Positions 24,885 through 39,915 of a stretch of 64,000 nucleotides of DNA are shown here, one piece after another. Numbering within the stretch: the stretch's first letter is position 1; every line of letters starts with the position of its first letter. This DNA is from Clostridiales bacterium (GTDB lineage: Bacteria; Bacillota; Limnochordia; Darwinibacteriales; B1SED10-159), in the NCBI GenBank assembly GCA_003559095.1, contig PWMW01000057.1:6538-70537 (forward strand), read 5' to 3'. Below the pieces are notes generated by a model. It worked only from the letters and a program-made list of their open reading frames with translations. It did no database searches and was not told the origin of the DNA. The position numbers were made by a program, and so were the translations under genes.

Positions 24885-26207
24885 TTAAAGGGGAAAGATG
24901 GCCACATCCTTGAGCTGCCAATATTGGTCTAGGGGCGTAAGCTGCAGGCGCACAAGATGGCGGTGTTGATCCGTAGTCAGTATCACGTGGAATCTGACGG
25001 AACCCGTCTCTGCATGGGTTACATCCTGAATTTGCGTCTGCAGGACATCACCTATGGATCTGACAAAGGCTGCCAGAGCTTGCCGTTGCTCATCATCGGC
25101 AAACGAACGATCCCACCACAAAGAGTCCTGGGTCCATGGGGTGGTCAGCAGCCGCTCTAGCCACAGCTCCAAACTTTCCAAGAGAACACCGGTGTCTTGG
25201 GATGGTGCTGGTGTAATCTGTAGTTCCGTGACATACCAGGTGGAATCAACCAACTGCCACCCTTTGGTCCAATACACCTCACGGCCGTCCCATTCAGCCT
25301 GGAACCGGCTTTCTGCTGTATTCTCGTCCAACTGCTGCCACTGCCAGTCAGCTGCAGCCTGCAGGTGCGAAAGGGCATCCTTGATCCGCTGCAGTTGTTG
25401 CGGCTCTCGCAGTACGTTGCTGAAATAGTTCTCCCAATCCTCCACCGAAGACTCTTGTTCCCACAGTTGCTGCAGGGAGAGGCTGCGTTCAGCAAACGGA
25501 ACGTCCAGGGGTTCGGGCTCTAGGGGGGCGGTGTCTTCGTCGGTGTCTAAAGGAGCCGCCGGAGGTTCATCGGTGTCCTGGTCCACTTCGGGAACTCCAT
25601 GGTCGGTACCGGGCGGCACTGGGGATGGGGTGTCAGTGGGTTCTGGAGGCGCAACAGCGGTCCCCGAAAACTCAATGACTGGGTAATCCTCAGTGACCGC
25701 ACGGCGAAATTTGCGAACCCCGGGACCGGCTGGAAGTTGCTCCCAGGTCCCCGTCAACTGACCGCTGCTGTCCGGTGCGAACTCCACGGTCAAGGTCTCC
25801 AGACTGAAAATGTTGGACATACGCGGGAACCAGAGGGAATCCTCCGCAAGGCGTCCTGATTCCAAAACGCCACTGGGAAGGATGCCTTCGTACGAAATCT
25901 CCAAGGGCTGCGGTGATTGCGGCTGCGAGCGCAGTGTCACCGTGAGGCGGGTGGCTGAGGGACGCCGATCAACTCCATAGCTGAGCATACCCGGAATCCA
26001 GATGGCCGTAACCTGGGCACCTGGAAAGAGAGAAAATTCCAGCGTCGAACTTTCTAGGGTTACCGTAAAGGCCGCAGTGACGCGCAAAAATTCCTGTTCC
26101 GGTTGGAAAAAAACATGGATTGCATCGGCCTCGACGGCGGAGGATACGGCGCTGGAAAAGTGCAGCAACAATAAAAAAATCATGGCAAGGATCTTCACGG
26201 AATTCAA
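24885..26207 (-). CDS. Secreted hypothetical protein (signal peptide, acidic Pro-rich linker, Trp-rich C-terminal domain)
   Basis: MNSVKILAMIFLLLLHFSSAVSSAVEA signal peptide and PPEPTDTPSPVPPGTDHGVPEVDQDTDEPPAAPLDTDEDTAPLEPEPLD linker. I recognise no family. Confidence 0.6.
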   Translation of the reverse strand: MNSVKILAMIFLLLLHFSSAVSSAVEADAIHVFFQPEQEFLRVTAAFTVTLESSTLEFSLFPGAQVTAIWIPGMLSYGVDRRPSATRLTVTLRSQPQSPQPLEISYEGILPSGVLESGRLAEDSLWFPRMSNIFSLETLTVEFAPDSSGQLTGTWEQLPAGPGVRKFRRAVTEDYPVIEFSGTAVAPPEPTDTPSPVPPGTDHGVPEVDQDTDEPPAAPLDTDEDTAPLEPEPLDVPFAERSLSLQQLWEQESSVEDWENYFSNVLREPQQLQRIKDALSHLQAAADWQWQQLDENTAESRFQAEWDGREVYWTKGWQLVDSTWYVTELQITPAPSQDTGVLLESLELWLERLLTTPWTQDSLWWDRSFADDEQRQALAAFVRSIGDVLQTQIQDVTHAETGSVRFHVILTTDQHRHLVRLQLTPLDQYWQLKDVAIFPL

Positions 26208-26331
26208 CCTCCCACTGCACTAATTCGCAGTTTCAGACAGCAATCCTTCTCAAAAGATGGATATTGGCTCTCGCGGCCCCGTATTGCCAAACATGCTCGG
26301 TCAGCGTAAACTGGTATTTGGGAGGGGTACT

Positions 26332-27087
26332 ATGAGAAAGCATTGGCTTTGGTTCGTGCGCGGGCTTCCGTTCGGTCTAGCCAACATCCTGCCCGGTATC
26401 AGTGGGGGCACTGTAGCCCTTGTGTTGGGGTATTACGATGAGGTAGTGGCTGCTGTCAAAGGGCTCCGCTTCGCGGCGCTGGTACCGTGGGTTTTGGGAA
26501 TTGGCGCCAGTATTTTGGGAGGCTCGTGGCTGATCCTCAGTCTTCTAGAGCGGCACACAACGTCTGTCTATGCCGTTATGTTGGGGTTCATTTTTGCATC
26601 GGCCGCATTGGTGGCTCGCCATAGTGACCTGCGGGAGCGGCGTCAGCTCTGGGCGTTTGTGGCATTGGGAGCGGCCGGTGCTTGGTTGTTCGCCGGCACT
26701 CGCTTAACGGCGCCGATGGCTGAACCGTCCATGATCAGCTTGTTTTTCGTGGGCGTGGCTGCCAGTTCGGCCATGATCGTTCCAGGCATCAGTGGTGCTG
26801 CCGTGTTCTTAATTTTCGGCTACTACCAGCCCATCCTAGAGGCGGTAACTCAGCTGGATTTTACCGTGCTGGTCCCAACGGGTGCAGGCGTGGTGGCAGG
26901 AGTTTTGCTATTGGCCCACATCATGAACTTTCTGCTCCGTCAGTGGCCGCATTTGACCTATGCGCTGCTAAGCGGGCTGATCCTGGGATCCACTCGGATG
27001 GTGTTGGTGGAGCCCACGGTTTGGCATGGCATTCTGTTTGCCGTGGGGTTCGCTGCTGCACTGCGTCTGGGTCCCGTTAAGCTTTAG
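26332..27087 (+). CDS. DUF368 membrane protein (family recently linked to undecaprenyl-phosphate recycling)
   Basis: GLANILPGISGGTVALVLGYYDE and a second PGISGAAVFLIFGYY repeat. ATG 26332 behind GGGAGGGG. Confidence 0.8.
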   Translation: MRKHWLWFVRGLPFGLANILPGISGGTVALVLGYYDEVVAAVKGLRFAALVPWVLGIGASILGGSWLILSLLERHTTSVYAVMLGFIFASAALVARHSDLRERRQLWAFVALGAAGAWLFAGTRLTAPMAEPSMISLFFVGVAASSAMIVPGISGAAVFLIFGYYQPILEAVTQLDFTVLVPTGAGVVAGVLLLAHIMNFLLRQWPHLTYALLSGLILGSTRMVLVEPTVWHGILFAVGFAAALRLGPVKL

Positions 27088-27521
27088 GCCTTCTCAGACA
27101 GCTCCAGAATCATGTCTTTGTGCGGAATCCCGGCATCCATATACTCGCCACTGGTTACGGAGAAGCCGAGGCGCTCATAAAACGGGATAGCATGGAGCTG
27201 CGCGCTGAGATAGGCCTGGGGAAGCTGCCGCTGCCGACATTCAGCGAGGATTGCCGTCAGCAGTGCTCGACCAACGCCCTGCCCCCGTCCTTCGGCCAGC
27301 ACCGCCATGCGCCCAATTTTCCCGCGGCCGGGCTGTTCCACCAGTCGGCCTGTACCCACCATACGTCCGTCCACAAACGCACCGAAATGGATGGCCGTCT
27401 CATCAAGGTGATCCTGTTCCTCTTCGAAGGGCACCTTTTGTTCATCAACAAACACTTGGATGCGAATGGCCATGGCTTGCGGAAACTCGGTGCCAGTTAG
27501 GGTGCGAACCGTTACATTCAT
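27084..27521 (-). CDS. GNAT-family N-acetyltransferase
   Basis: RGQGVGRALL acetyl-CoA motif. Start set to ATG 27521 behind GGAG; the track ORF up to 27716 is an over-extension. Confidence 0.8.
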   Translation of the reverse strand: MNVTVRTLTGTEFPQAMAIRIQVFVDEQKVPFEEEQDHLDETAIHFGAFVDGRMVGTGRLVEQPGRGKIGRMAVLAEGRGQGVGRALLTAILAECRQRQLPQAYLSAQLHAIPFYERLGFSVTSGEYMDAGIPHKDMILELSEKA

Positions 27522-27668
27522 GTTGAAGACTCCTTTGCAGACAACTTGGCCCTTCTGCATGGCAGGGGCCAGCTGGGCGCAAAACCTGCCGCCCTGCCAT
27601 TGTTTTCGCCATGGCATCCCGAGATTCCTGTCGCTGGATGTTCGCGGCAGCTGTCTCACCGGTGGGGT

Positions 27669-27697
27669 TTGACAGCTGCCAGAGATAGTGCTATGCT
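27669..27697 (+). promoter_or_regulatory. Sigma-A promoter TTGACA-17-TATGCT for tatA
   Basis: The hexamers were read directly. The -35 is overlapped by one arm of a 10-bp inverted repeat. Confidence 0.6.
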
Positions 27698-27736
27698 TCA
27701 CATATACGGTCAGCAAGCGCAGAAGGGGGAATTCTG

Positions 27737-27922
27737 ATGTTTGGCCGCTTAGGTCCCACGGAACTGATTCTGATCTTGGTGATTGTACTCGTGATCTTTG
27801 GTCCCGCGAAGCTTCCCGAAATTGGCAAGTCCATCGGTCGCAGTCTCCAGGAGTTTAAGAAGGCCACCACCGAACGGCCCGATGATTCACCAGATCCTGA
27901 TGAGCGCAAGGAAGATTCCTAG
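27737..27922 (+). CDS. tatA: Twin-arginine translocase subunit TatA/E
   Basis: [43 protein letters not shown]. No tatC is in the window. Confidence 0.9.
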
Positions 27923-28043
27923 CGCTGGCCGCTGCAATCCCGACCTAGCTGTTTCGGAGAAGCTGTTATCCAGTCGGTTCAACCCGGCGGATTTCGGGTC
28001 TGGTGGCACAAGTGCAAAGGAAATACGCTGTTAACCGCCCATG

Positions 28044-28069
28044 GGCTCGGAGAACTCCGGGCCTTTTTT
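28044..28069 (+). terminator. Rho-independent terminator GGCTCGGAG-AA-CTCCGGGCC + TTTTTT
   Basis: The stem with a T6 run lies about 120 nt after the tatA stop. Confidence 0.7.
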
Positions 28070-28071
28070 GT

Positions 28072-28100
28072 TTGTGTTTTTGCGGCAAAATTGCTATAAT
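28072..28100 (+). promoter_or_regulatory. Promoter TTGTGT-17-TATAAT for the aminotransferase-reductase fusion gene
   Basis: A perfect -10 and a TTG-type -35, read directly. Confidence 0.55.
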
Positions 28101-28107
28101 AAGGGTG

Positions 28108-28123
28108 TGCACAATTTTGTGCA
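28108..28123. promoter_or_regulatory. 7-2-7 palindromic operator TGCACAA-TT-TTGTGCA
   Basis: Perfect arms starting 8 nt after the -10 hexamer, the position expected for a repressor roadblock. Confidence 0.5.
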
Positions 28124-28143
28124 TACGACAGGAGGCGGGCAGC

Positions 28144-30780
28144 ATGCATTCATACACCAAATACGTTAACCCCTATTTGGGCAAACGACTAAGTGAGATC
28201 GGCATGGATAAGCGATTCGTCCGGGGCGACGGGTGCTATCTTTACGATGACCAAGGCCACAAGTATTTGGATTTCATCGCAGCCTATGGGGCGCTGCCTT
28301 TTGGCTATAATCATCCGCGTATTTGGGATGCTGTCCAACAGCTGCACAGCAATATGCACCCCAGTTTTGCCCAGCCTTCGCACTTGGAAGCCGCTGGCCA
28401 ACTGGCAGCAGCATTAGTGGCGGCAGCACCGCCAGGCATTCAGTATGCGACATTTGCCAATTCCGGTGCTGAAGCGGTGGAGGCCGCCATTAAGCTGTGT
28501 CGGGCCCGTACTGGGCGCCGCAGCATCGTCACTGCAACCAATAGTTTCCACGGCAAGACGTTAGGGGCCCTGTCCGCCACTGGAAATCGTGGATACCAGG
28601 ATGCGTTTTTTGCTCCTGTGGAAGGCTTTCGTCACATTCCCTTCGGTGATCTGGACGCACTGAAGACGATCTTGGAGGAGGACGCCGTCGGGACGGCCGC
28701 CATTATGCTCGAGCCTATCCAAGGTGAAGGCGGTATTGTTGAGCCGCCCCCGGGGTATCTAGCGGAAGTTCGCCGGCTGTGTACTGAATATGAGGTTCCT
28801 CTGATCCTCGACGAAATTCAAACGGGGCTGGGACGAACCGGCAGCCTTTTTGCGTGTGAACGGGAGCAGGTTGTGCCGGATGTTCTTGTGCTGGCTAAGG
28901 CCTTAAGCGGCGGCCTAGTGCCCATAGGAGTGACCTTGTGTACAGAAGACATGTATACGGAAGCCTTTGGCATGAAGCACTCTTCAACCTTTGGCGGCAA
29001 TGCCCTGGCAGCAACTGTGGGCTTGGAAGTTATGCAGATGCTGACCGAAGACAATGGTGCCATTCTGCGGCACGTGGAAGAACAGGGACAAGTGCTGAAG
29101 CGGGGCCTATTGGATATCCAGAACCGCTATCCCGAAGTGGTTCGGGGAGTTCGTGGTCGTGGTTTTATGTTAGGTATCGATTTTGGAACGGATAAGAATG
29201 TATATCCGCATAGTCTTTTGGGAGTCTTAGCTGAGCAGGAAATCCTGACGCCGATCGTTTCCAGCTACATGTTGAATGCGGAGCGACTGCGTGTGGCTCC
29301 CACATTGAATGGAGCTAGCGTAATTCGAGTGGAGCCACCGCTCACAGCTGGCCCTGCGGAGATTCAGCGGGCCCTGGAAGCTATTGAGGCTACGGCTTCG
29401 GTGTTGTCGGCAAAGAATACCGCCGGCCTGCTGGGCCATCTAGTGAACTGGGAACCCCCTGGTGAGCTGGAGTCCTTTGCTTACCAGCGGGGTGGAGAAG
29501 AAGTGAAGGCTGCACCCGGCATGAACCGATTTGCGTTTTTGATCCATCCCGTGGATTTGAGCAACTATACCGAATTTGATCGCAGTATGGAAGTGTTCGA
29601 TGAGGCCCAGCTGCGAGACCTCAGTCTGCGCTGGAATGATATGGTGGAACCGTTCGTCGTATCATCGACGGTAGTTACCGGCCAAGATGGCAGCCAGGCC
29701 TATGGTGAGTTCATCTGTGTGCCCCGCACCGCTCAGCAGTTGTTGGATATGTCCAAGGAACAGGCTGAACAGGAGATTCTGCAGGCCGTGGAACTGGCTG
29801 CATCACGGGGAGCCCAGTTGGTCGGCTTGGGTGCTTATACCTCTGTGGTTACCATGGGAGGACGTTCACTTCTGGGTAAGGCACCTATTCCGGTAACAAC
29901 CGGGAACAGCTATACCGTGTTGTCTGGTCTTGAGGCACTTATGTATGGGGCCGAACGACTGGGCGTGGATCTGCAGCAGGCTACGGCAGCGATTCTCGGA
30001 GCCGGCGGTGCCATTGGCAAGGCCTCGGCGTCCCTGCTGGGCGAAGAGGTGCAGCGGCTGATTCTGGTAGGTAATCCCGCCAGAGCCGAAAAGAGCCAAC
30101 ATCGCATGTTAAAAGTCGTCGCCGAGTTTATGCGCCGCTCGGTGCAGCGCTGCCAAGCAGGTTATCGTTTTGCTCCAGGAAGCGTGGCAGCGGCCGTGGT
30201 CCGTTGGTCCCAGGGTTTGGACACGGAAAGTTCCTTGGGGCCTTGGTTGGAAGCGGCCAAGCAGTTTGTGAGCGAGTCGGAGCAGATCCTTCTAACCGTC
30301 GATGCTGAACGGTATCTGCCCGAGTCCGATCTTATTCTGTCGGCCACCAGCAGTACCGAAGCGTTGATTCAGCCCCATATGTTAAAGTGGGGTGCCTTAG
30401 TCTGTGATATGTCACGGCCCGTGAATGTCAGTCGGGATGTACTGCAGCGCAGAGAAGACGTTCTGGTGATCGATGGTGGTGTTATCGAAGTGCCTGGACG
30501 ACCGGATCTAGGGTGGGACTTCGGTTTTGACAAAGGCTTAGCCTATGCCTGCATGTCCGAAACCATGATGCTGGCTTTGGCGGGTCGGTTTGAGAACGCC
30601 AGTATTGGCGCAGACCTTAACTTAGACCATCTGCAGCTGCTGCGGGATCTGGCTGTAACGTTCGGATTCCATTTGGCGGGCTTCCGAAGTTTTGACAAAC
30701 CCATCGCTGAGGGTGTGTGGGAGCGTGTCGTGGCGGCCCGGCGTAAGGAGTTGGTGGCCGAGGCAGCCCACGGCGGATGA
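28144..30780 (+). CDS. Bifunctional fusion: class-III (omega) aminotransferase (N-terminal, ~430 aa) + acyl-ACP reductase (AAR)-like NAD(P)H thioester reductase (C-terminal, ~410 aa)
   Basis: N-terminal motifs: LDFIAAYGALPFGYNHP, DEIQTGLGRTG and LAKALSGG (PLP Lys). The C-terminal part is collinear with cyanobacterial AAR as I recall it: FAFLIHP, LGAYTSVV, TTGNSYT, ILGAGGAIGKA, VIDGGVIE, and AYACMSETMML with the catalytic Cys retained. ATG 28144 behind AGGAGG. Confidence 0.75.
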   Translation: MHSYTKYVNPYLGKRLSEIGMDKRFVRGDGCYLYDDQGHKYLDFIAAYGALPFGYNHPRIWDAVQQLHSNMHPSFAQPSHLEAAGQLAAALVAAAPPGIQYATFANSGAEAVEAAIKLCRARTGRRSIVTATNSFHGKTLGALSATGNRGYQDAFFAPVEGFRHIPFGDLDALKTILEEDAVGTAAIMLEPIQGEGGIVEPPPGYLAEVRRLCTEYEVPLILDEIQTGLGRTGSLFACEREQVVPDVLVLAKALSGGLVPIGVTLCTEDMYTEAFGMKHSSTFGGNALAATVGLEVMQMLTEDNGAILRHVEEQGQVLKRGLLDIQNRYPEVVRGVRGRGFMLGIDFGTDKNVYPHSLLGVLAEQEILTPIVSSYMLNAERLRVAPTLNGASVIRVEPPLTAGPAEIQRALEAIEATASVLSAKNTAGLLGHLVNWEPPGELESFAYQRGGEEVKAAPGMNRFAFLIHPVDLSNYTEFDRSMEVFDEAQLRDLSLRWNDMVEPFVVSSTVVTGQDGSQAYGEFICVPRTAQQLLDMSKEQAEQEILQAVELAASRGAQLVGLGAYTSVVTMGGRSLLGKAPIPVTTGNSYTVLSGLEALMYGAERLGVDLQQATAAILGAGGAIGKASASLLGEEVQRLILVGNPARAEKSQHRMLKVVAEFMRRSVQRCQAGYRFAPGSVAAAVVRWSQGLDTESSLGPWLEAAKQFVSESEQILLTVDAERYLPESDLILSATSSTEALIQPHMLKWGALVCDMSRPVNVSRDVLQRREDVLVIDGGVIEVPGRPDLGWDFGFDKGLAYACMSETMMLALAGRFENASIGADLNLDHLQLLRDLAVTFGFHLAGFRSFDKPIAEGVWERVVAARRKELVAEAAHGG

Positions 30781-30844
30781 TGGGTCATCAGGTTTTATTT
30801 CCAAGAAGAATAGGTGTTTCCACTACCTAGTCCAATGTTTGTAA

Positions 30845-30885
30845 CGAAAACCACGTTCTCTGAAGCAAAGAGAGCGTGGTTTTCG
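30845..30885 (+). terminator. 17-bp hairpin CGAAAACCACGTTCTCT-7nt-AGAGAGCGTGGTTTTCG followed by CTATTTTG
   Basis: A long stem (one G-U pair) 65 nt after the fusion gene stop. Confidence 0.7.
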
Positions 30886-31034
30886 CTATTTTGCGCCGAA
30901 CTACTCGTTTTCCCTATGTAAAAAGAATCGCGAGGGAAATTATGGAAAACGAAGAGAGCTGGTCCGTTGGCGATAGTTGACATAACATCACCTGGTATGT
31001 GGAAGGAAATGGAAGCTACCGGCCTGTGCTGGAC

Positions 31035-31063
31035 TTGACGCATCTTGTATGTTTGTATACAAT
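31035..31063 (+). promoter_or_regulatory. Strong sigma-A promoter TTGACG-17-TACAAT for the citrate synthase-aconitase-IDH operon
   Basis: The hexamers and spacer were read directly. Confidence 0.65.
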
Positions 31064-31073
31064 TATACAAACA
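31050..31073. promoter_or_regulatory. GntR-type operator: TGTTTGTATA-CAAT-TATACAAACA containing the self-complementary TTGTATACAA
   Basis: A 10-bp perfect inverted repeat overlapping the -10. It has the GT-N-AC core typical of GntR-family sites, and a FadR-type GntR gene follows the operon. Confidence 0.55.
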
Positions 31074-31119
31074 AGGTTGTACCTGTAAGCGAGGCATGTT
31101 TGAGATTGGAGGAAGCAGG

Positions 31120-32493
31120 ATGTTTGAGTTCAGTCGCAAGACGAACCTATTGGAAAGAACGGAGTTTCGTTATCCTCTGCAGGATGTTGAGCAGCCGCAA
31201 TTGTTTCGGAACTTGTTCCCATATGATGAAGTGCCAAAGATTGCTTTCAACCGCCGGATGGTGCCCATGAATATGCCTGATGACATCTGGATTACGGACA
31301 CGACCTTTCGGGATGGCCAGCAGTCCCAAACACCGTGGGATGTGAAGCACATTGTTCATCTTTATGATCTGCTGCATCAGCTAGGTGGTCCCAATGGTCT
31401 CATTCGTCAAAGTGAGTTCTTTTTGTATAGCGCCAAGGATCGTGAGGCTGTGGAAAAGTGCCTTGAGCGGGGCTATCAGTTTCCGGAGGTTACCGGTTGG
31501 ATCCGCGCCAGTGCCAAGGATTTTCAGCTGGTCAAAGAAATGGGCCTCAAAGAAACGGGTATCCTGGTATCGTGTTCGGATTACCACATTTTCCACAAGT
31601 TGAACATGACCAGGAAGCAGGCCATAGAGCACTATCTCACGGTGGTGCGCCAATGTATAGAGACGGGCGTGAAACCGCGGTGTCATTTTGAGGATATCAC
31701 CAGAGCCGATATCTATGGCTTTGTGATTCCTTTTGCCATTCGTTTGATGGAACTGATGGCGGAGACGGGAGTTCCCGTTAAAATACGGGCCTGCGATACC
31801 ATGGGATACGGTGTAAGTTTTCCCGGAGTGGTGCTGCCGCGCAGCGTGCCGGGAATCATCTATGGGTTATTCCATCATGGTGGTGTTCCCAGCGAGTTGC
31901 TGGAATGGCACGGCCACAACGATTTCTACAAGGTTGTGAACAATGCGTCGGCGGCATGGCTTTACGGTGCATCGGGAGCGAACTGTTCCTTGTTGGGCAT
32001 TGGTGAGCGTACTGGCAACTGTCCTTTGGAAGCCATGGTCTTTGAATACGCCCAGTTCCGGGGAACCACTGATGGTATGGATACTACAGTGATCACAGAG
32101 ATCGCCCGCTACTTTGAAGAAGAGATGGGTTACTCCATTCCACCGCGAACGCCGTTTGTTGGGGAAGATTTCAATGTTACCAAGGCAGGGATTCATGCAG
32201 ATGGTCTGCTTAAGAATGAGGAGATCTACAATATTTTCGACACCAAGAAGATTCTTGGTCGTGAGCCTAGGGTCCACATATCCAGTACCAGCGGTGCTTC
32301 GGGGATCGCCCACTGGATTCGTACCCATTTCGAACTGCACGAGTCCGTGGATAAGAACCATCCAATCGTGAAGGCCGTCAAAGCTTGGGTGGACGACCAG
32401 TATGAGAGAGGCCGGGTTACGAATATCAGCGATGCGGAGATGACTCGCCAAACGCAGCAGGCCTTACATGATCATGGAAGGAGTGAGGCCTAA
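31120..32493 (+). CDS. Homocitrate/isopropylmalate-synthase-family enzyme, probable Re-face citrate synthase
   Basis: ITDTTFRDGQQS and HGHNDF motifs. It has the N-terminal extension FPYDEVPKIAFNRR and is followed directly by aconitase and IDH. Confidence 0.65.
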   Translation: MFEFSRKTNLLERTEFRYPLQDVEQPQLFRNLFPYDEVPKIAFNRRMVPMNMPDDIWITDTTFRDGQQSQTPWDVKHIVHLYDLLHQLGGPNGLIRQSEFFLYSAKDREAVEKCLERGYQFPEVTGWIRASAKDFQLVKEMGLKETGILVSCSDYHIFHKLNMTRKQAIEHYLTVVRQCIETGVKPRCHFEDITRADIYGFVIPFAIRLMELMAETGVPVKIRACDTMGYGVSFPGVVLPRSVPGIIYGLFHHGGVPSELLEWHGHNDFYKVVNNASAAWLYGASGANCSLLGIGERTGNCPLEAMVFEYAQFRGTTDGMDTTVITEIARYFEEEMGYSIPPRTPFVGEDFNVTKAGIHADGLLKNEEIYNIFDTKKILGREPRVHISSTSGASGIAHWIRTHFELHESVDKNHPIVKAVKAWVDDQYERGRVTNISDAEMTRQTQQALHDHGRSEA

Positions 32494-32494
32494 T

Positions 32495-34432
32495 ATGGGT
32501 CGCAGTATTGCACAGAAGATTCTCGAGGAGCATCTCGTCAATGGATCCATGGAGCCCGGTTCTGATCTGGCGATTCGGATTGATCAGACATTGACCCAGG
32601 ATTCCACGGGCACCATGGCGTACCTGCAGTTAGAGGCTATGGGCGTGGAGCAAGTGCAAACCGAATTCTCCATTGCCTATGTGGATCACAATATGCTGCA
32701 GCAGGGATTTGAGAATGCGGATGATCATAAGTACATTCAAACCGTCGCCAAGAAACATGGTGTTCACTTTTCCCGCCCGGGCAACGGCATCTGTCATCAA
32801 GTTCATCTTGAACGGTTTGCCAAGCCGGGAGGAACCCTGCTGGGCTCCGACTCACATACACCCACAGCGGGCGGCATCGGCATGATTGCCATTGGAGCTG
32901 GTGGCCTGGATGTGGCGGCTGCCATGGGAGGACAGCCGTATACCATTCCGGCACCTAAGGTCACCGCCGTGGAGTTAACGGGAGCGCTGCCGCCCTTCGC
33001 TACGGCTAAGGATGTCATTCTGGAAGTTCTCCGCCGTCTGACTGTCAAGGGCGGCGTTGGCCGCATTATGGAATACATTGGCGAGGGTGTGACGACCCTC
33101 TCAGTGCCAGAGCGAGCGACCATCACCAACATGGGGGCCGAACTTGGTGCTACCACATCCGTGTTCCCCAGTGATGCCAGAACCCGTCAGTTTTTGCAGG
33201 CTCAAGGAAGGGAAGCAGATTGGGTGGAACTGCTCCCTGATTCCAACGCACAGTACGCAGAGCATATTGTGGTGGACTTGAGCAGTATTGAGCCTTTAGC
33301 CGCCCAGCCACACAGCCCAGATGCAGTGGATTCCGTGGGGAACATCGGGGCTATCCAGGTGGATCAGGTGGCCATTGGCAGCTGCACCAACTCCAGCTAC
33401 CAAGATCTGATGCGGGTGGCAGCTATTTTGAAAGGTAAGACTGTTCATCCTGATGTCAGCTTGGTAATTTCACCCGGTTCCAAACAAGTCTTGTCCATGT
33501 TGGCCGCCAATGGCGCGCTGGCCGATCTGATTCAGGCCGGGGCGCGCATTCTCGAGGCAGGCTGCGGGCCTTGTATCGGCATGGGGCAGGCTCCAGCCAC
33601 CAACGCCATTTCGCTGCGGACATTCAACCGCAACTTCAAGGGCCGCTGCGGGACGGATAGTGCCGGTGTATACTTGGTCAGTCCTGAGACAGCGGCAGTC
33701 AGTGCCTTGGAAGGTGTCCTAACCGATCCTCGCCACTTAGGAGCAGCCATCGAGATCGCCGAACCTGAGCAGTTCCCTGCCCAGGATAATTTGGTGGTAC
33801 CCCCGGCCACTGCCGGTGAGGAGGTTGCCGTGGTGCGGGGTCCCAACATCAAAGAGTTCCCGCTCAATACGGCACTGCCGCAGCATTGGGAAGCGCCGAT
33901 ACTGCTGAAGGTGGGTGACAACGTTACTACCGATGATATCATGCCCTCCAATGCCAAACTGCTGCCGTTCCGATCCAACATTCCTTATTTGGCCGAGTTT
34001 TGCTTTTCACCTGTGGATTCTGGGTTCCCAGCCCGCGCCCAACAGGCTGGGGGTGGGTTCATTGTGGGCGGTGACAACTATGGCCAAGGCTCAAGTCGTG
34101 AGCATGCAGCGCTGGCTCCATTGTATCTCGGAGTTAAGGCAGTTATTGCCAAGAGTTTTGCCCGAATCCACCGAGCGAACTTGATCAACTCGGGGATCGT
34201 TCCGCTGGAGTTTGAGCAGCCGGATGATCATGAATGGCTCAAGGAGGGCGATGTTCTCCTCGTGGAATCTTTGGTGGAGGCCGTGCAGGGTGACGAGCCG
34301 ATTCCTGTAAAAGTTGTCAACCGCGAAGGGCAGTTCGCTGTTCGCTGCGCCTTATCTCCCCGCGAGCAGGAGATGATCCTGGCTGGGGGCCGCATCAATG
34401 TTATTCGTCAATCACAGAAGGGAGATGCATAA
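32495..34432 (+). CDS. Aconitate hydratase (monomeric ~645-aa clostridial/Aquifex type)
   Basis: GSDSHT, IGSCTNSS, GCGPCIG and NYGQGSSREHAA motifs. Confidence 0.85.
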   Translation: MGRSIAQKILEEHLVNGSMEPGSDLAIRIDQTLTQDSTGTMAYLQLEAMGVEQVQTEFSIAYVDHNMLQQGFENADDHKYIQTVAKKHGVHFSRPGNGICHQVHLERFAKPGGTLLGSDSHTPTAGGIGMIAIGAGGLDVAAAMGGQPYTIPAPKVTAVELTGALPPFATAKDVILEVLRRLTVKGGVGRIMEYIGEGVTTLSVPERATITNMGAELGATTSVFPSDARTRQFLQAQGREADWVELLPDSNAQYAEHIVVDLSSIEPLAAQPHSPDAVDSVGNIGAIQVDQVAIGSCTNSSYQDLMRVAAILKGKTVHPDVSLVISPGSKQVLSMLAANGALADLIQAGARILEAGCGPCIGMGQAPATNAISLRTFNRNFKGRCGTDSAGVYLVSPETAAVSALEGVLTDPRHLGAAIEIAEPEQFPAQDNLVVPPATAGEEVAVVRGPNIKEFPLNTALPQHWEAPILLKVGDNVTTDDIMPSNAKLLPFRSNIPYLAEFCFSPVDSGFPARAQQAGGGFIVGGDNYGQGSSREHAALAPLYLGVKAVIAKSFARIHRANLINSGIVPLEFEQPDDHEWLKEGDVLLVESLVEAVQGDEPIPVKVVNREGQFAVRCALSPREQEMILAGGRINVIRQSQKGDA

Positions 34433-35590
34433 ATGATGTATGAACAGGCAGCTGAGCATTTTGTGAAGCTCATAAAAAGTCAGCAGGAACGAATTGCGCA
34501 GATGAAACAAGAGCAGGATTTTCTGGATTATGACAGTCTTGATACCCTAATCATTGGTGTTGTAGGAGGAGACGGTATCGGACCAGCCATTACCCAGCAG
34601 GCACAGCGGGTACTTGAGTTCGTCTTGGCTGAGGATGTGAACGCGGGCAGGGTGGAGTTCCGGGTCATAGACGGTTTGACCATTGAGCGCCGAGCCGAAT
34701 TAGGTCAAGCCATTCCCGGCGATACCCTCGCGGAGATCAAAAAGTGTCATGTGATTCTAAAGGGACCCACGACGACGCCGCAGGCAGGAGACCCTTGGCC
34801 CAACATAGAAAGCGCCAATGTCGCCATGCGCAAGGCGTTTGACCTGTTCGCCAATGTGCGTCCGGTACGGGTTCCTGAAGATGGCATTGATTGGACTTTT
34901 TTCCGGGAGAATACCGAAGGCGCCTATGCCTTGGGCTCCAATGGAATCCATGTCGATGACGAACTGGCCTTTGATTTCACCGTGACAACCACGGAGGGGA
35001 CACGCCGCATTGTGCGGGCTGCCTTTGAGTATGCCAAGAAGAACGGCAAAACGAAGGTGACCGCTGTGACCAAGGCGAATGTCGTAAAAACCACTGACGG
35101 CAAGTTCTTGGACATCGCCAAGGATATTGCCCAGGAATATCCTGAGGTCGAACTGGATGATTGGTATATTGATATCATGACGGCCAAACTCATTGACACC
35201 AAGCGGCGGCAGCAGTTCCAGGTTCTGGTTCTGCCCAATCTTTATGGAGATATTCTGACTGATGAGGCCGCAGAGTTCCAAGGCGGTGTCGGCACCGCGG
35301 GCAGTGCCAATATTGGTAAACGCTACGCTATGTTCGAGGCCATCCATGGTTCGGCACCGCGGATGGTTAAGGAAGGGCGAGCCCAGTATGCCGATCCCTC
35401 CAGTATGATGCGGGCTGCTGTGCTGCTTCTGCAGCATATTGGCCGTGAAAGGGAAGCTGCCCGGTTGGCGCAAGCTCTAGATATCTGTTCCATCACCGAA
35501 CGGAAAATCGAAATGACTGGTCGCGATACCGGTGCGACTGGAGAAGAGTTCGCCGATTATGTCATGAAAACCACGGCGAAACTAGCGTAG
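34433..35590 (+). CDS. Isocitrate dehydrogenase (isocitrate/isopropylmalate dehydrogenase family)
   Basis: GDGIGPAI, FRENTEG, NLYGDILTDEAA and GSAPRM motifs. Confidence 0.8.
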   Translation: MMYEQAAEHFVKLIKSQQERIAQMKQEQDFLDYDSLDTLIIGVVGGDGIGPAITQQAQRVLEFVLAEDVNAGRVEFRVIDGLTIERRAELGQAIPGDTLAEIKKCHVILKGPTTTPQAGDPWPNIESANVAMRKAFDLFANVRPVRVPEDGIDWTFFRENTEGAYALGSNGIHVDDELAFDFTVTTTEGTRRIVRAAFEYAKKNGKTKVTAVTKANVVKTTDGKFLDIAKDIAQEYPEVELDDWYIDIMTAKLIDTKRRQQFQVLVLPNLYGDILTDEAAEFQGGVGTAGSANIGKRYAMFEAIHGSAPRMVKEGRAQYADPSSMMRAAVLLLQHIGREREAARLAQALDICSITERKIEMTGRDTGATGEEFADYVMKTTAKLA

Positions 35591-35708
35591 CGATGGCTTG
35601 GCCAAACGGAACGATGGCAACCGCCGCTGCGCAGTGAGTACACTCCAGCGCCAGTAGATCATGGGGACGGCATCGTATGGAAGAGACAGATGGGTGAGGA
35701 GGCAGGTC

Positions 35709-36383
35709 ATGGATGTGTTTGATACCCGCGGAGACAGAGAATCTTTTGGTCGGCACAATCTGGGAAGTCGTGTCTTCTACCGTCTGCGGGAAGATATTCT
35801 TAATGGCAAGTACGCGCCCGGTGAGGCCCTGCGGGAAGGGAAGATTTCGCAGGAGCTCGGCGTTAGCCGGACACCAGTGCGGGAGGCTATCCGACAATTG
35901 GAGTTGGAGGGACTCGTCTCACTGTACCCTCATCGGGGCGCTGTGGTTACGGGTATCAGCGAAAAGGATATCCGCGACATCTTTGCCATCCGTTCCCATC
36001 TTGAAGGCATGGCCGCGCTGTGGGCGGCTGAACATATGACCGATGACCAGTTCCAGGAACTGAAGGACGTCGTGGAACTGATGGACTTCTACACCGCCCG
36101 GCACAGCCTCAACAAACTGGTGGATTTGGACAGCCGATTTCATGAGATCATCTACGAGGCCTCGGATAGCAACCCCCTGCATCACGTGCTCTCGTCGTTT
36201 CATTACTTTGTGCAGCGGGCCCGCATGGCGTCGCTATCCACCCCAGGCCGGGCGGAGTTAGTGGTACAAGAACACCGGGCTATTCTGGACGCATTGGCTG
36301 CCGGCGACGGGCCCCGGGCTCAACAGTGCATCAACCAGCATGTGCGTAACGCAGCGGCCAATGTACACAAGGAAACTCCATAG
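35709..36383 (+). CDS. GntR-family regulator, FadR subfamily (FCD domain)
   Basis: LREGKISQELGVSRTPVREAIRQLELEGLV HTH with an all-helical C-terminal domain. ATG behind GAGGAGG. Confidence 0.85.
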   Translation: MDVFDTRGDRESFGRHNLGSRVFYRLREDILNGKYAPGEALREGKISQELGVSRTPVREAIRQLELEGLVSLYPHRGAVVTGISEKDIRDIFAIRSHLEGMAALWAAEHMTDDQFQELKDVVELMDFYTARHSLNKLVDLDSRFHEIIYEASDSNPLHHVLSSFHYFVQRARMASLSTPGRAELVVQEHRAILDALAAGDGPRAQQCINQHVRNAAANVHKETP

Positions 36384-36603: not shown

Positions 36604-37125
36604 ATGGATGCTCTGCAGGCCATATGTGAGCGGCGCTCAATTCGGGATTTTCTGCCCAAAACGCTGGAGCGCAGCACAGTGGAAGAGTTAGTGGAAGCGG
36701 CCAGTTTTGCCCCTTCGGCCCATAATGGGCAGCCGTGGGAGTTCATCTTCGTTGAGGACCGTGAAGTCTTGGATGCTCTCAATGAAGGTCGCAAATATAC
36801 CAGAATGCTGCTGCATGCCCCCGGTGCCTTTATCGTTTGTGCCAAGTTTCCGGAAAAACCGCGCCAGCCCAAGGGTGACGGCGTGGAATATTTCAGCATT
36901 CAAGACACTGCTGCTGCCATTCAGAACCTCCTCTTGGCGGCTCACGCCAAAGGCTTGGGAACGTGCTGGATCGGAGACTTTGATGAAGATGTGCTGCGGG
37001 AACTATTCAAAATTCCCCAGGGCTATGCTCCCGTGGCAGTGATCGCCGTGGGATATCCCAAGTACACGCCCAATGCCCGCCCCCGCCGTCCCGTCAAAGA
37101 AATCCTCCATTGGGGTACGTTCTAG
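36604..37125 (+). CDS. Nitroreductase-family flavoprotein
   Basis: RRSIRDF, APSAHNGQPW and GLGTCWIG motifs. Confidence 0.8.
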   Translation: MDALQAICERRSIRDFLPKTLERSTVEELVEAASFAPSAHNGQPWEFIFVEDREVLDALNEGRKYTRMLLHAPGAFIVCAKFPEKPRQPKGDGVEYFSIQDTAAAIQNLLLAAHAKGLGTCWIGDFDEDVLRELFKIPQGYAPVAVIAVGYPKYTPNARPRRPVKEILHWGTF

Positions 37126-37127
37126 CC

Positions 37128-37841
37128 ATGGTGAGCTTTGCGCCGATTCGCAGTGAACGAGTGTACGAAAAGGTCGTGCAGCAGGTGCAGACCCTGATGT
37201 TGGACGGGCAGTTGAAGCGGGGCGATCGTCTGCCGCCAGAACGGGATATGGTGGCGCAGCTGGGAATCAGCAGGGCCAGTCTGCGGGAAGCGTACAGTGC
37301 CTTGGAACTGGTGGGTCTTATCGAGACCCGTCCTCGGGAAGGAACGTTCATTAAAGAAGAAACTGGTCAAGGTATTCATCCCCTGTCACTGTTCTTTTTG
37401 GCCGAGGACAATTTCCATGACGACTTTCTCGAACTTCGCCGCCTCCTCGAGCTGCAGGTGGCCGCCTTGGCAGCGGAGAAGATGGATCCCGAGGCGGTAC
37501 AAGCCCTGCACCAATGCGTGGCGCGCATGGCTGCGGCCGTCGATGATACCATCAGCATCGAAGAGGACAAGGAATTTCACCGACTCTTGGCCAACGGCAG
37601 TGGTAATCGCATGTTAATGGCTTTGGTGCAGGCCATTGGCCATGTGGTGGACCACCACATCGAAGCCAATCGTATCCACTGGTTTCGCGAATCGGAACAG
37701 CGACAACAGCTCTTGGAGATCCATACCCGAATCGCTAATGCTGTGGATGCTGGGGAGTCCGGGCAAGCTCGTCGGTGGATGGAAGAACACTTTCAGTTAG
37801 TGGATCAGATGCGATCCCTGCAGGAGAATGTCGAGGTTTAG
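37128..37841 (+). CDS. GntR-family regulator, FadR subfamily, LldR/PdhR-like (lctA-like)
   Basis: PPERDMVAQLGISRASLREAYSALELVGLIETRPREGTFI. It lies immediately upstream of the etf/LDH genes. Confidence 0.8.
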   Translation: MVSFAPIRSERVYEKVVQQVQTLMLDGQLKRGDRLPPERDMVAQLGISRASLREAYSALELVGLIETRPREGTFIKEETGQGIHPLSLFFLAEDNFHDDFLELRRLLELQVAALAAEKMDPEAVQALHQCVARMAAAVDDTISIEEDKEFHRLLANGSGNRMLMALVQAIGHVVDHHIEANRIHWFRESEQRQQLLEIHTRIANAVDAGESGQARRWMEEHFQLVDQMRSLQENVEV

Positions 37842-37912: not shown

Positions 37913-38734
37913 GTGCATATAGTGGTGTGTATCAAACAAGTGCCTGAGAGTCGCGACGTGGAAATGGACCCTGTAACCGGTTCGCTGCTGCGGGAAGGTG
38001 CGGCATCGGTAATGAACCCGTTCGATCTCTATGGACTGGAGGCGGCATTGGCCCTCAAAGAGCGGTATGGCGGTCAGGTAACGGTAATTACCATGGGTCC
38101 TCCCCAAGCGGAAGAAGTGATCCGTGAAGCTTACATGATGGGAGCCGATCGTGGCATCATGCTCTCAGACCGGGCCTTTGCCGGTGCCGATACCCTGGCC
38201 ACGGCGTACACATTGGCGCAGGGTATTGCCCGCATCGAGTCTGTGGATCTGATCATCTGCGGGCTGCAGACCACGGACGGCGATACGGCTCAGGTGGGCC
38301 CCGGGATGGCGGAATTTCTGGATCTTCCTCATGAGTCTGCTGTGGCAGCCATTCGCGGTGTTGATGAGGCAGGGTTGTGGGTGCAGCGAGATATGGGCAG
38401 TACTATCATGGAGCTGTCGCTGCAGCTGCCCTGCCTGATCACAGTCACAAAGACGGTGAATCAACCGCGGCTGTTGTCCTTTCGCAGAAAATTAGCTACC
38501 AAGGACTGGCCTGTCGAAATCTGGGGTCGGAGCCATATTGCTGCCGAAACAGGCGGATACTTCGGTCTGGACATGTCGCCAACACAAGTGGAGCGCATGT
38601 TCCCTCCGGAGTCCCACAGTCACCATGAGCGTTGGGAAGGCAGTGCTGAAGAGCTTTCGCAGCGCCTGCAGCAGTGGCTGATGGATGAGAAATTCATCGA
38701 ACAGGAGGTGGAGCCATGGGCATCAAAGTCATAG
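37913..38734 (+). CDS. etfB: Electron transfer flavoprotein beta subunit (LctB-like)
   Basis: MHIVVCIKQVPE...NPFDLYGLEAAL pattern. GTG start. Confidence 0.85.
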   Translation: MHIVVCIKQVPESRDVEMDPVTGSLLREGAASVMNPFDLYGLEAALALKERYGGQVTVITMGPPQAEEVIREAYMMGADRGIMLSDRAFAGADTLATAYTLAQGIARIESVDLIICGLQTTDGDTAQVGPGMAEFLDLPHESAVAAIRGVDEAGLWVQRDMGSTIMELSLQLPCLITVTKTVNQPRLLSFRRKLATKDWPVEIWGRSHIAAETGGYFGLDMSPTQVERMFPPESHSHHERWEGSAEELSQRLQQWLMDEKFIEQEVEPWASKS

Positions 38735-39915
38735 AGGAACGCTGTACCGGCTGTGGGCTCTGTCTCGAAGTGTGCCCCTTCGCCGCCATGGAACTGCGCG
38801 ACGGCGTGGTGACCATCAATGAAGCTTGCCGGGTCTGCCGTCTCTGTTTGAAGGCCTGTCCCGAGAGTGCTTTGGAACTGCGAGAAAGTTCTGGACCGAG
38901 CCTAGATCGTGATGCCTTTCAAGGTGTGATGGTGGTGGGTGAACAGCAACAGCAGCATCTGCACCCAGTGACCTTTGAGCTTATGGGCAAAGGCCGGGAA
39001 CTGGCGGATCAGTTGGGGCAGCAGCTCCATGTGGTTTTGATTGGACAGGATCTGACGTCCCATGGTGAACGGCTTTTGGAGTTTGGCGCTGATCGCGTCT
39101 GGCTGGCCGACGCGCCCGAACTGCAGCATTTTCTTGTGGAACCCTATGCCAATGCCGTTGCAGAGGCAGTGCATCGGGTCCAACCAAACATCCTGCTGCT
39201 GGCTGCCACCAATGCCGGCCGTTCTCTAGCACCGCGCTTGGCCGTTCGTCTGCGGACGGGCCTGACGGCCGACTGCACGTACCTGCATGTGAAAGACAAC
39301 GGTGATTTGGTCCAGATCCGTCCAGCCTTTGGCGGTAACGTCATGGCGCAGATTGTCACTCCCAAACACCGTCCACAGATGGCTACGGTCCGCTACAAAA
39401 TGATGGAACCAGCGCGGCCGCAGCGGCGTCCTGGTGCTTCTGTGGAACCCATCCCTCTGCACAGTGATCAACTGCGCTCGGGAGTTACGATCCACTCTGT
39501 GAAAACTCGTAAGGAGCAGCCAAGCATCAGCGAAGCGGAAGTGGTCATAGCTGTGGGTCGGGGGCTCAAGGCCCAAAAAGATCTGCAGTTGGCCTCTGAC
39601 CTAGCGGAACTTTTGGGCGGGCAGGTGGGTGTGACAAGACCGCTGGTGGAGATGGGCTGGGCCGACCACAACCAACAGATCGGACTGAGCGGTCGCAGCA
39701 TTCGACCTAAACTGCTAATCTGCTTTGGGATCTCCGGTGCCGTTCAGTTTAACGCTGGAGCCGCATCCGCCGACTGGATCGTAGCCATTAATGAAGACCC
39801 CGATGCCGCTGTGTTTCAGATTGCCCATTATGGTTTGGTGGGCGATCTTTATGAGATCGTACCCCGCCTAATTCATGGATTGCGAGAACGGAGGGCTCAG
39901 CATGCCGTATTCTAA
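38716..39915 (+). CDS. etfA: Electron transfer flavoprotein alpha subunit with N-terminal 2x[4Fe-4S] ferredoxin domain (LctC-like)
   Basis: CTGCGLCLEVCP and CRVCRLCLKACP are followed by the ETF-alpha FAD domain (GISGAVQF). Confidence 0.85.
   Translation: MGIKVIEERCTGCGLCLEVCPFAAMELRDGVVTINEACRVCRLCLKACPESALELRESSGPSLDRDAFQGVMVVGEQQQQHLHPVTFELMGKGRELADQLGQQLHVVLIGQDLTSHGERLLEFGADRVWLADAPELQHFLVEPYANAVAEAVHRVQPNILLLAATNAGRSLAPRLAVRLRTGLTADCTYLHVKDNGDLVQIRPAFGGNVMAQIVTPKHRPQMATVRYKMMEPARPQRRPGASVEPIPLHSDQLRSGVTIHSVKTRKEQPSISEAEVVIAVGRGLKAQKDLQLASDLAELLGGQVGVTRPLVEMGWADHNQQIGLSGRSIRPKLLICFGISGAVQFNAGAASADWIVAINEDPDAAVFQIAHYGLVGDLYEIVPRLIHGLRERRAQHAVF

Follow-up and report, generated by a model that had tools for sequence, protein, structure and literature searches.

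What reaction is catalyzed by a polypeptide that joins a transaminase to a relative of cyanobacterial acyl-acyl carrier protein (ACP) reductase (AAR), and is such an arrangement new? The question is raised by a gene at positions 28144..30780 (+) of a 64,000-nucleotide stretch of a Clostridiales bacterium genome (assembly GCA_003559095.1, contig PWMW01000057.1, positions 6,538 to 70,537), the whole of which is called the window here. A reading of the letters alone (the sequence-only reading) had proposed that the two halves act in succession, the reductase converting a thioester to an aldehyde and the transaminase converting the aldehyde to an amine, and had been aware of no characterized natural enzyme with this architecture. 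The two-step logic is supported by homology to experimentally studied enzymes. The claim of novelty does not hold, as PtTamH (2022) has the same domain order and PigE (2021) has the reverse order. The fusion is real, both halves look catalytically competent in sequence and in structural models, and the product is probably a bifunctional TamH-type enzyme that takes an acyl thioester through an aldehyde to a primary amine. The window gene encodes an uncharacterized TamH-like enzyme, and its architecture is one that has already been characterized.

The N-terminal half of the protein, residues 1 to ~430 (28144..29433), is a class-III pyridoxal phosphate (PLP) aminotransferase, as the sequence-only reading held. 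Pfam Aminotran_3 (PF00202) covers residues 26-416 with an E value of 9.9e-91, Lys252 (codon 28897-28899) lies in an LAKALSGG motif, and D223 and Q226 belong to the DEIQTG motif. A variable interdomain linker (residues ~431-460, 29434..29523), recognized from poorly conserved alignment columns and from the block of lowest predicted local confidence (pLDDT 64) in the full-length model, leads into an AAR-type thioester reductase domain (residues ~461-878, 29524..30777). This second domain contains a GxxGxxG nucleotide loop, G619-G625 (29998-30018), and a predicted catalytic Cys803 (codon 30550-30552). Searched alone, the C-terminal 446 residues match the domain at the N-terminus of PigE (E 6.9e-29 to PDB 4PPM residues 2-344) as well as cyanobacterial AAR (6JZQ, E 2.7e-15; TIGR04058, E 4.4e-20), with glutamyl-tRNA reductase matched only marginally. 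The motifs quoted in the sequence-only reading, DEIQTGLGRTG, LAKALSGG with Lys252, GAGGAIG at 619-625, and AYACMSETMML with Cys803, are each found in place.

Structural modeling gives a similar picture. The full-length model is confident, including the packing of its domains (pLDDT 89.5, pTM 0.83). A fold search with it returned only aminotransferases, with PigE's transaminase domain (4PPM, 40% identity) and the putrescine aminotransferase YgjG (4UOX) at their head, and the reductase domain was therefore modeled on its own. The resulting AlphaFold model (pLDDT 92.7, pTM 0.91) displays the two-domain AAR fold with the Cys at the domain junction. Its best Foldseek match is AAR 6JZU (E 4.8e-21, TM 0.82 on the target), the second is the carmabin TAD (9E4S, E 4e-18), and all others have a TM of 0.38 or less. 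Sequence matches, nucleotide loop, Cys803, and fold thus bear out the proposed kinship of the C-terminal ~410 residues with AAR. Conservation points the same way: across 65 family members with 52-62% identity to the window protein, K252, D223, Q226, G619, G622, G625, and C803 never vary, and neither do many residues around Cys803 and the nucleotide loop.

PtTamH, from the tambjamine YP1 pathway of Pseudoalteromonas tunicata, consists of a class-III transaminase, a ~50-residue linker, and an AAR-type thioester reductase with the catalytic motifs G707xxGxxG713 and Cys887 (Richardson et al. 2022, ACS Catal, PMC9594044). In a one-pot reaction with the adenylation-ACP protein TamA, it turns fatty acids with chains of C7-C14 into fatty amines (PMC9594044); for example, a C12 acid yields the C12 amine (PMC9594044; summarized in a 2025 preprint, bioRxiv 10.1101/2025.08.11.669332). 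The reductase is active on the cognate acyl-ACP, and acyl-CoA is not accepted (PMC9594044). BLASTP against the PtTamH sequence, taken from the paper's supplement as machine-read text and ~5 residues short, gave one collinear high-scoring segment pair between window residues 135-844 and TamH residues 207-922 (29% identity, E 2e-73) and a second one at window residues 16-117. The longer segment spans the linker and a helical insertion in the reductase, and it pairs LAKAL with LAKSL, GAGGAIG with GAAGNIG, and YACMSETM with YACCGETM. The two proteins share the order transaminase-linker-AAR-type reductase, the catalytic Lys, the GxxGxxG loop, the Cys, and the insertion, whose shared extent is ~50 residues. 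They differ in ~85 extra residues inside the TamH transaminase domain, in their setting (TamH is encoded in a pigment cluster alongside the loader TamA, whereas the window gene stands alone among housekeeping genes), and in their hosts, a marine gammaproteobacterium versus a soda-lake lineage of Bacillota.

The helical insertion deserves a closer look. It comprises three helices (residues ~645-711, 30076..30276, +), lies between the nucleotide loop and the catalytic Cys, and does not align to AAR or PigE, relative to which it adds ~55-60 residues. Its helices (645-671, 681-688, and 698-711) are predicted with high confidence in the full-length model, it aligns to TamH, and it is also present in other transaminase-fused reductases. 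The loop-to-Cys spacing, scored in family representatives where both motifs could be found, is 127-141 residues in 34 of the 50 free-standing reductases scored and has a median of ~180 residues in transaminase-fused forms; it is 184 residues in the window protein and 180 in TamH by the published numbering. The spacing and insertion shared with TamH mark the reductase as one of the TamH type rather than of the PigE or AAR type. Possible roles for the insertion are an interface with the transaminase domain or a docking surface for ACP.

A broader view comes from an exhaustive HMMER search with the reductase domain, counted as representatives of clusters at 50% identity. At E <= 1e-3 it found 2804 representatives, of which 556 pass E <= 1e-30, and an aminotransferase lies directly upstream of the reductase in 84 of the best 150. 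The architectures of these 150, where TA denotes the transaminase and TR the thioester reductase, are reductase alone (65, fragments among them), TA-TR (57), TA-TR-adenylation (10), adenylation-ACP-TA-TR (10), ACP-TA-TR (6), and adenylation-TA-TR and TR-adenylation (1 each), and Pfam confirmed example architectures among the representatives. The sequence-only reading had suggested such a profile search and survey of architectures; both families are matched, and fusions prove to be frequent. Further TA-TR proteins come from Chromobacterium, Metabacillus, Planctomycetota, and Streptomyces.

Relatives whose reductases are fused to adenylation or ACP loading domains are 38-51% identical to the window reductase domain, and DIP2-like AMP-domain matches mark the adenylation domains as fatty-acyl-AMP-ligase-like in many of them. 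Judged by its domains, the adenylation-ACP-TA-TR form combines in one polypeptide all parts of a "carboxylic acid to amine" synthase, in effect TamA plus TamH. These loader fusions argue strongly that the subfamily receives a carrier-bound acyl group and passes an aldehyde to the adjacent transaminase, in the reductive direction. Metagenomic megafusions (P0129, 1604 aa; P0151, 999 aa; P0123, 1406 aa; P0145, 2624 aa) take four forms, namely adenylation-ACP-TA-TR, ACP-TA-TR, TA-TR-adenylation, and a larger form with adenylation, class-I/II aminotransferase, adenylation, ACP, TA, and TR in succession.

In the proposed mechanism, the AAR-type domain would first load Cys803 with the acyl group of a phosphopantetheine thioester. 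An acyl carrier protein would be the most likely donor, and possibly the ACP of the housekeeping fatty-acid synthase, because no dedicated loader is encoded nearby. In the second step, NAD(P)H would reduce the acyl-enzyme and the aldehyde would be released; the alignments fit neither a preference for NADH nor one for NADPH decisively. In the third step, the class-III PLP aminotransferase would use Lys252 to turn the aldehyde into a primary amine, with glutamate or alanine, for example, as donor. The gene is expressed from a transcript of its own, driven by an extended -10 promoter, and is probably repressed via an operator that overlaps the start. We infer the three catalytic steps from the mechanisms of AAR, TamH, and PigE, and likewise catalysis itself, the cofactor, the amino donor, the substrate, and any channeling of the aldehyde. 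A ping-pong acyl-enzyme mechanism is expected by analogy with AAR. The basis for the proposal lies in the domain identities, the invariant catalytic residues, the fold, the collinearity with TamH, and the adenylation and ACP fusions of relatives.

Other characterized systems share parts of this scheme. PigE, from the MAP branch of prodigiosin biosynthesis in Serratia, uses an N-terminal AAR-like domain (Cys296) to reduce a thioester and a C-terminal transaminase to aminate the aldehyde (Couturier et al. 2021, PMC8341465); its substrate is a keto-thioester, and its product cyclizes to a dihydropyrrole (PMC8341465). It has the same two domain families in one polypeptide and the same chemistry of thioester reduction followed by transamination, and it is the best database match for both halves of the window protein. 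However, the domains are matched in permuted order, in three stretches, as the reductase comes first in PigE, and the PigE reductase lacks the helical insertion. AAR (TIGR04058; PDB 6JZQ/6JZU/6JZY) resembles the window reductase in fold, nucleotide loop, and catalytic Cys context, but it is a free-standing protein of ~340 aa that has no insertion and is 22% identical. Its aldehyde goes to aldehyde-deformylating oxygenase (ADO) rather than being handed over to a transaminase; no ferritin-like protein is found among the annotated neighbors of the window gene, where no search aimed at ADO was made.

Two further systems link carrier-bound thioesters to nitrogen incorporation or to amines. TAD, a putative terminal amidation domain of the carmabin and vatiamide nonribosomal peptide synthetase (NRPS)-polyketide synthase systems, belongs to the AAR superfamily and has an invariant Cys next to NAD (PDB 9E4S; bioRxiv 10.1101/2024.10.28.620694). 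Like the window reductase, it would act on a carrier-protein thioester and is tied to nitrogen incorporation. Unlike the window protein, it is found at the C-terminus of an NRPS module, has no fused aminotransferase, and has an amide as its proposed product. At 16-17% identity its relation to the window reductase is structural only, and there is no NRPS context around the window gene. TabE and TabA of the Streptomyces tambjamine BE-18591 pathway carry out the same conversion, from acyl-ACP through an aldehyde to a fatty amine, but do so as two separate proteins, and their reductase is of the aldehyde-dehydrogenase/LuxC type and unrelated to AAR (bioRxiv 10.1101/2025.08.11.669332).

Several observations weigh against a TamH-type assignment or limit what can be transferred from it. 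The enzyme-level function of the clade is predicted by homology, and at 29% identity to TamH and outside a tambjamine or prodiginine cluster, neither chain length nor product is transferable. Instead of pigment genes, the neighbors are tatA, GNAT, DUF368, glutamate dehydrogenase, homocitrate-synthase-like, aconitase, and isocitrate-dehydrogenase-like genes. Curated equivalog models are not reached either: for PigE (NCBIfam NF053554) the protein attains 563 bits where 850 are required, and for AAR (TIGR04058) 72.3 bits where 449.7 are required. The aminotransferase domain is nearest to that of PigE and to putrescine aminotransferase, which leaves room for polar or bifunctional substrates. Finally, tblastn found no adenylation or ACP gene in the 64-kb window (nothing below E 0.5), and none is adjacent to the fusion gene in the related loci L001, L003, L005, L007, L008, and L010. 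With no loader in the window or next to the gene in these related loci, the identity of the substrate donor is a guess, and the simplest one is the housekeeping acyl-ACP pool, as for AAR. The two putrescine aminotransferase models also score below their cut-offs, with 323 versus 612 bits for NF008570 and 284 versus 659 for TIGR03372.

The alternative that survives best, although it is unlikely, retains the chemistry and replaces the plain fatty chain with a functionalized thioester (keto-, amino-, or dicarboxyl-acyl), so that the product would be a diamine, a derivative of an amino acid, or an imine formed when an amino-ketone cyclizes. The aminotransferase half is in keeping with such a substrate, since its nearest relatives are PigE (40% in the structural alignment), whose natural substrate is a keto-thioester (PMC8341465), and putrescine aminotransferase YgjG (36-37%). 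Furthermore, no fatty-acid-specific loader lies nearby, and an apparent TA-TR operon in Metabacillus (see below) looks like small-molecule rather than lipid metabolism. Against this, TamH, the sole characterized enzyme with both the domain order and the insertion, uses C7-C14 fatty chains (PMC9594044), many relatives carry fatty-acyl-AMP-ligase-like adenylation domains, and the window holds nothing that points to a specific polar substrate.

A catabolic role in the reverse direction is less probable still. In this scheme, the aminotransferase would deaminate an amine such as a polyamine, and the AAR-like domain would use NAD(P)+ to oxidize the resulting aldehyde, giving a CoA or ACP thioester in whose bond an anaerobe would save energy. 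Thioester-forming oxidation of an aldehyde is chemically feasible, as acylating aldehyde dehydrogenases illustrate. The lack of a dedicated loader in the window fits this direction, as does the fact that the closest free-standing aminotransferase is the catabolic putrescine enzyme. In both the window and L010, a glutamate dehydrogenase gene lies 3.4 kb upstream, and in Metabacillus the fusion is followed by a Glu/Leu/Phe/Val-type dehydrogenase gene. However, the glutamate dehydrogenase gene forms its own unit several genes away and is not found there in L007 and L003, the adenylation-ACP fusions of close relatives make sense solely for flux from thioester to amine, and all characterized members of the AAR, TamH, and PigE group work reductively (PMC9594044, PMC8341465).

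It is very improbable that the reductase domain is degenerate or purely structural, leaving the protein an aminotransferase alone. Purified PigE and PtTamH have little or no reductase activity in vitro with simple thioesters or CoA (PMC8341465, PMC9594044), and the window domain scores under the curated AAR cut-off. Nevertheless, the TamH reductase is active on its cognate acyl-ACP (PMC9594044), the invariance of Cys803, the nucleotide loop, and many nearby residues across the 65 homologs argues for a working site, and the AAR fold is modeled at very high confidence. Least credible is a fused analogue of glutamyl-tRNA reductase (GluTR) and glutamate-1-semialdehyde aminomutase that would make 5-aminolevulinate. 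In its favor, AAR and GluTR are alike in fold and mechanism, the aldehyde made by GluTR is channeled to a PLP enzyme of class-III fold (PMC8341465), and the NAD-binding part weakly matches hemA at E 0.0011 and a GluTR structure at E 0.045. But these matches are marginal and confined to the Rossmann part, GluTR structures reach a TM of only 0.25-0.28, the aminotransferase is best matched by PigE, putrescine, and acetylornithine transaminases with no HemL among the top 25 models, and close relatives are fused to ACP with no link to tRNA, and on these grounds the idea was rejected.

A TamH-type conversion of acyl thioester to amine thus remains the preferred reading, and the question turns to how the gene is expressed. 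The coding sequence of the 878-residue protein, recognized from its open reading frame, from Pfam, NCBIfam, and PDB matches, from the family alignment, and from TamH BLASTP, is intact to 30780 (878 codons), with ATG 28144 as the favored start. The longest possible frame opens at GTG 28003, and this start is disfavored because the frame would cross a terminator and a promoter. In contrast, the M-H-P/S-Y sequence at ATG 28144 is the common start of all 64 aligned homologs, and a ribosome-binding site, AGGAGG (28130..28135, +), is read 8 nt ahead of the ATG. The start at 28144 is therefore supported by both the spacing of AGGAGG and the family alignments.

Upstream, an intrinsic-terminator-like hairpin and T-run (28043..28074, +) marks the end of the preceding tatA unit, with a hairpin at 28043-28064 (9-bp stem, 6 G-C pairs) and the tail TTTTTTGTTTG. 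Downstream of the gene, a hairpin with a 17-bp stem (30845..30885, +) is a candidate terminator with the T-poor tail CTATTTTGCG. Of the strong terminators that the sequence-only reading placed on both sides, the upstream one stands, and the downstream hairpin is present, although to call it strong is somewhat generous given its tail. Rfam recognized no known RNA element in the leader or in the downstream spacer. The gene has its own promoter, as had been predicted from its TATAAT: an extended -10, TGcTATAAT (28092..28100, +), with TG at 28092-28093 and TATAAT at 28095-28100. The -35 element TTGTGT at 28072-28077 is weak, which the extended -10 would explain. The orthologs in L010, L007, and L003 are preceded by TGnTATAAT at equal spacing.

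A predicted 20-bp operator, TGTGCACA-ATTT-TGTGCATA (28106..28125, +), begins six bases past the -10, overlaps the expected transcription start, and occurs just once in the window. At the core of this longer conserved site lies the perfect 7-2-7 palindrome (28108..28123) already noted in the sequence-only reading. In L010 and L007, TGcTATAAT is followed by TGTGCACA-AAAA-TGTGTACA; in L003, TGgTATAAT is followed by TGTGCACA-AAG-TGTGCTCA, with a 3-nt spacer; in L008, the operator TGTGCACA-TTAA-TGTGCACA follows a less canonical -10 (GATAAAAT). The consensus is TGTGCACA-N4-TGTGYAYA, with N3 in L003 (L010 9963-9982; L007 9960-9979; L008 9962-9981; L003 9961-9979). The proteins encoded by orthologs under this operator are just 50-75% identical to that of the window. 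Conservation of a non-coding element at such protein divergence, together with its overlap with the start, indicates a real repressor site, and the gene is probably repressed through it. Comparison of the operator with Rex, CRP/FNR, FadR/FabR, and GntR-type GT-N-AC cores gave no convincing assignment. The two GntR/FCD genes of the window were considered as a source of the regulator; this is unsupported, as they have no counterparts in the related loci.

The transcript itself is visible in environmental RNA. Contigs from a soda-lake sediment metatranscriptome (run X2) tile 28114-30784 at a depth of 7-13.5, and RNA contig coverage is zero in the flanks 27404-28105 and 30914-31615, whereas DNA runs cover both flanks evenly. 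Between 26000 and 33000 in the same run, the fusion gene has ~7-13x assembled depth and its neighbors have 0-5x, which suggests that in situ it ranks with the more strongly expressed genes of the region, with contig depth being a crude measure. The RNA contigs fit a monocistronic mRNA that begins just past the -10 element, and they stop at 30784, short of the hairpin at 30845-30885. The transcript ends are expected near 28107 (5') and shortly past 30885 (3'). Coverage of the gene and of neither flank agrees with the description of the gene as a monocistronic island in the sequence-only reading.

The close family to which the gene belongs (52-62% identity, all 860-890 aa) is annotated merely as "aminotransferase class III" and is found in Limnochordia, "Candidatus Darwinibacter," unclassified Bacillota metagenome-assembled genomes, and Symbiobacterium thermophilum, a cultivable species whose homolog (AP006840.1, ~863,273-865,900) shows 55% identity. 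The nearest genome match is a soda-lake sediment metagenome-assembled genome, the source of L010, with 75% identity over 291 residues at a contig end, and the runs that contain the window sequence are from soda-lake, alkali-sediment, and salt-lake metagenomes. A genome-wide locus scan used patterns from the aminotransferase domain and mostly matched ordinary aminotransferases, so that 8 of its 80 loci were useful.

Upstream of the fusion gene lie genes for pseudouridine synthase, Gate-domain proteins, glutamate dehydrogenase, a secreted hypothetical protein (-), a DUF368 protein, GNAT (-), and tatA (27737-27922; Pfam TatA_B_E). Downstream lie homocitrate-synthase-like, aconitase, and isocitrate-dehydrogenase-like genes, followed by GntR regulators. 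Comparison of 11 related loci revealed no conserved co-oriented operon partner across clades. Loci of the Limnochordia type share only chromosomal synteny (ZnuABC, pseudouridine synthase, Gate-domain proteins, the secreted hypothetical protein, and DUF368). The synteny is common to the window, L010, L007, and L003, and such a fixed chromosomal site indicates vertical inheritance rather than a mobile biosynthetic cluster.

Other loci display different arrangements. The Symbiobacterium-type loci lack the operator, and there the fusion gene is instead preceded by two co-oriented conserved genes (L001 8508-9977; L005 8475-9972), one for a protein of ~175 aa with a helix-turn-helix and one for a protein of ~306 aa without a family match. 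Neither has a homolog in the window or in Limnochordia-type loci, and the pair may be an alternative regulatory or functional module. In Metabacillus rhizosphaerae (NZ_CP147403.1, L019 8268-16875), a distant TA-TR fusion of 34% identity sits in an apparent operon with flavin amine oxidase, DUF3419, Glu/Leu/Phe/Val-type dehydrogenase, MFS transporter, and TetR regulator genes, with the fusion second in order after the oxidase; from its gene content, this operon is a candidate small-molecule amine pathway.

Several neighbors merit a brief description. The secreted-type protein encoded at 24885-26207 (-) has 440 aa, a signal-peptide-like N-terminus, an acidic proline-rich middle, and no Pfam or NCBIfam match, and it is kept at the same syntenic position in L010, L007, and L003. 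At 26257-27087 (+) lies a gene for a DUF368/VCA0040-like membrane protein (Pfam "undecaprenyl phosphate translocase-like"), which adjoins the fusion gene upstream in L007, is separated from it by a minus-strand GNAT gene in L010, and is separated from it by GNAT and tatA in the window. On the downstream side, homocitrate/citramalate-synthase-like, aconitase-family, and isocitrate/isopropylmalate-dehydrogenase-family genes stand in a row (31045-35590, +), with a 12-nt inverted repeat (30905-30916/30941-30952) upstream of the first. Two GntR/FCD regulators (35661-36383 and 37110-37841) and a nitroreductase gene come after this row. Genes for EtfB, an EtfA that bears a ferredoxin domain at its N-terminus, and an FAD-linked oxidase follow at 37913-41308 (+), a set that resembles the electron-bifurcating lactate or glycolate dehydrogenases of anaerobes.

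What, then, does the locus add? The understanding of the chemistry is unchanged by these findings. What is new is modest: a clade of ~870-aa stand-alone enzymes across Limnochordia, Symbiobacterium, and "Ca. Darwinibacter"-type Bacillota that lies outside pigment clusters, and a conserved extended -10 and 20-bp predicted operator governing a transcript of monocistronic type. Beyond the clade, the TA-TR module is widespread and has recurrently been fused to adenylation and ACP domains. A route from an activated acid to a primary amine on one polypeptide is of interest for biocatalysis, which is why TamH and TamA were published. The clade supplies compact stand-alone versions from thermophilic and haloalkaliphilic Bacillota that may be of some use as biocatalysts. 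Should they take generic acyl-ACP or acyl-CoA, these versions could prove sturdier or broader in scope than TamH. For the biology of the organisms, one tentative idea, itself rather doubtful, is that the stand-alone enzyme draws on acyl-ACP from housekeeping fatty-acid synthase to make a fatty amine, an amino-lipid, or a polyamine-like precursor within core metabolism, under a dedicated repressor-operator pair. If true, this would be a primary-metabolic alkylamine pathway without a described bacterial counterpart. More generally, a vertically inherited, individually regulated, and actively transcribed copy found class-wide outside pigment clusters hints at an amine-containing metabolite in these bacteria.

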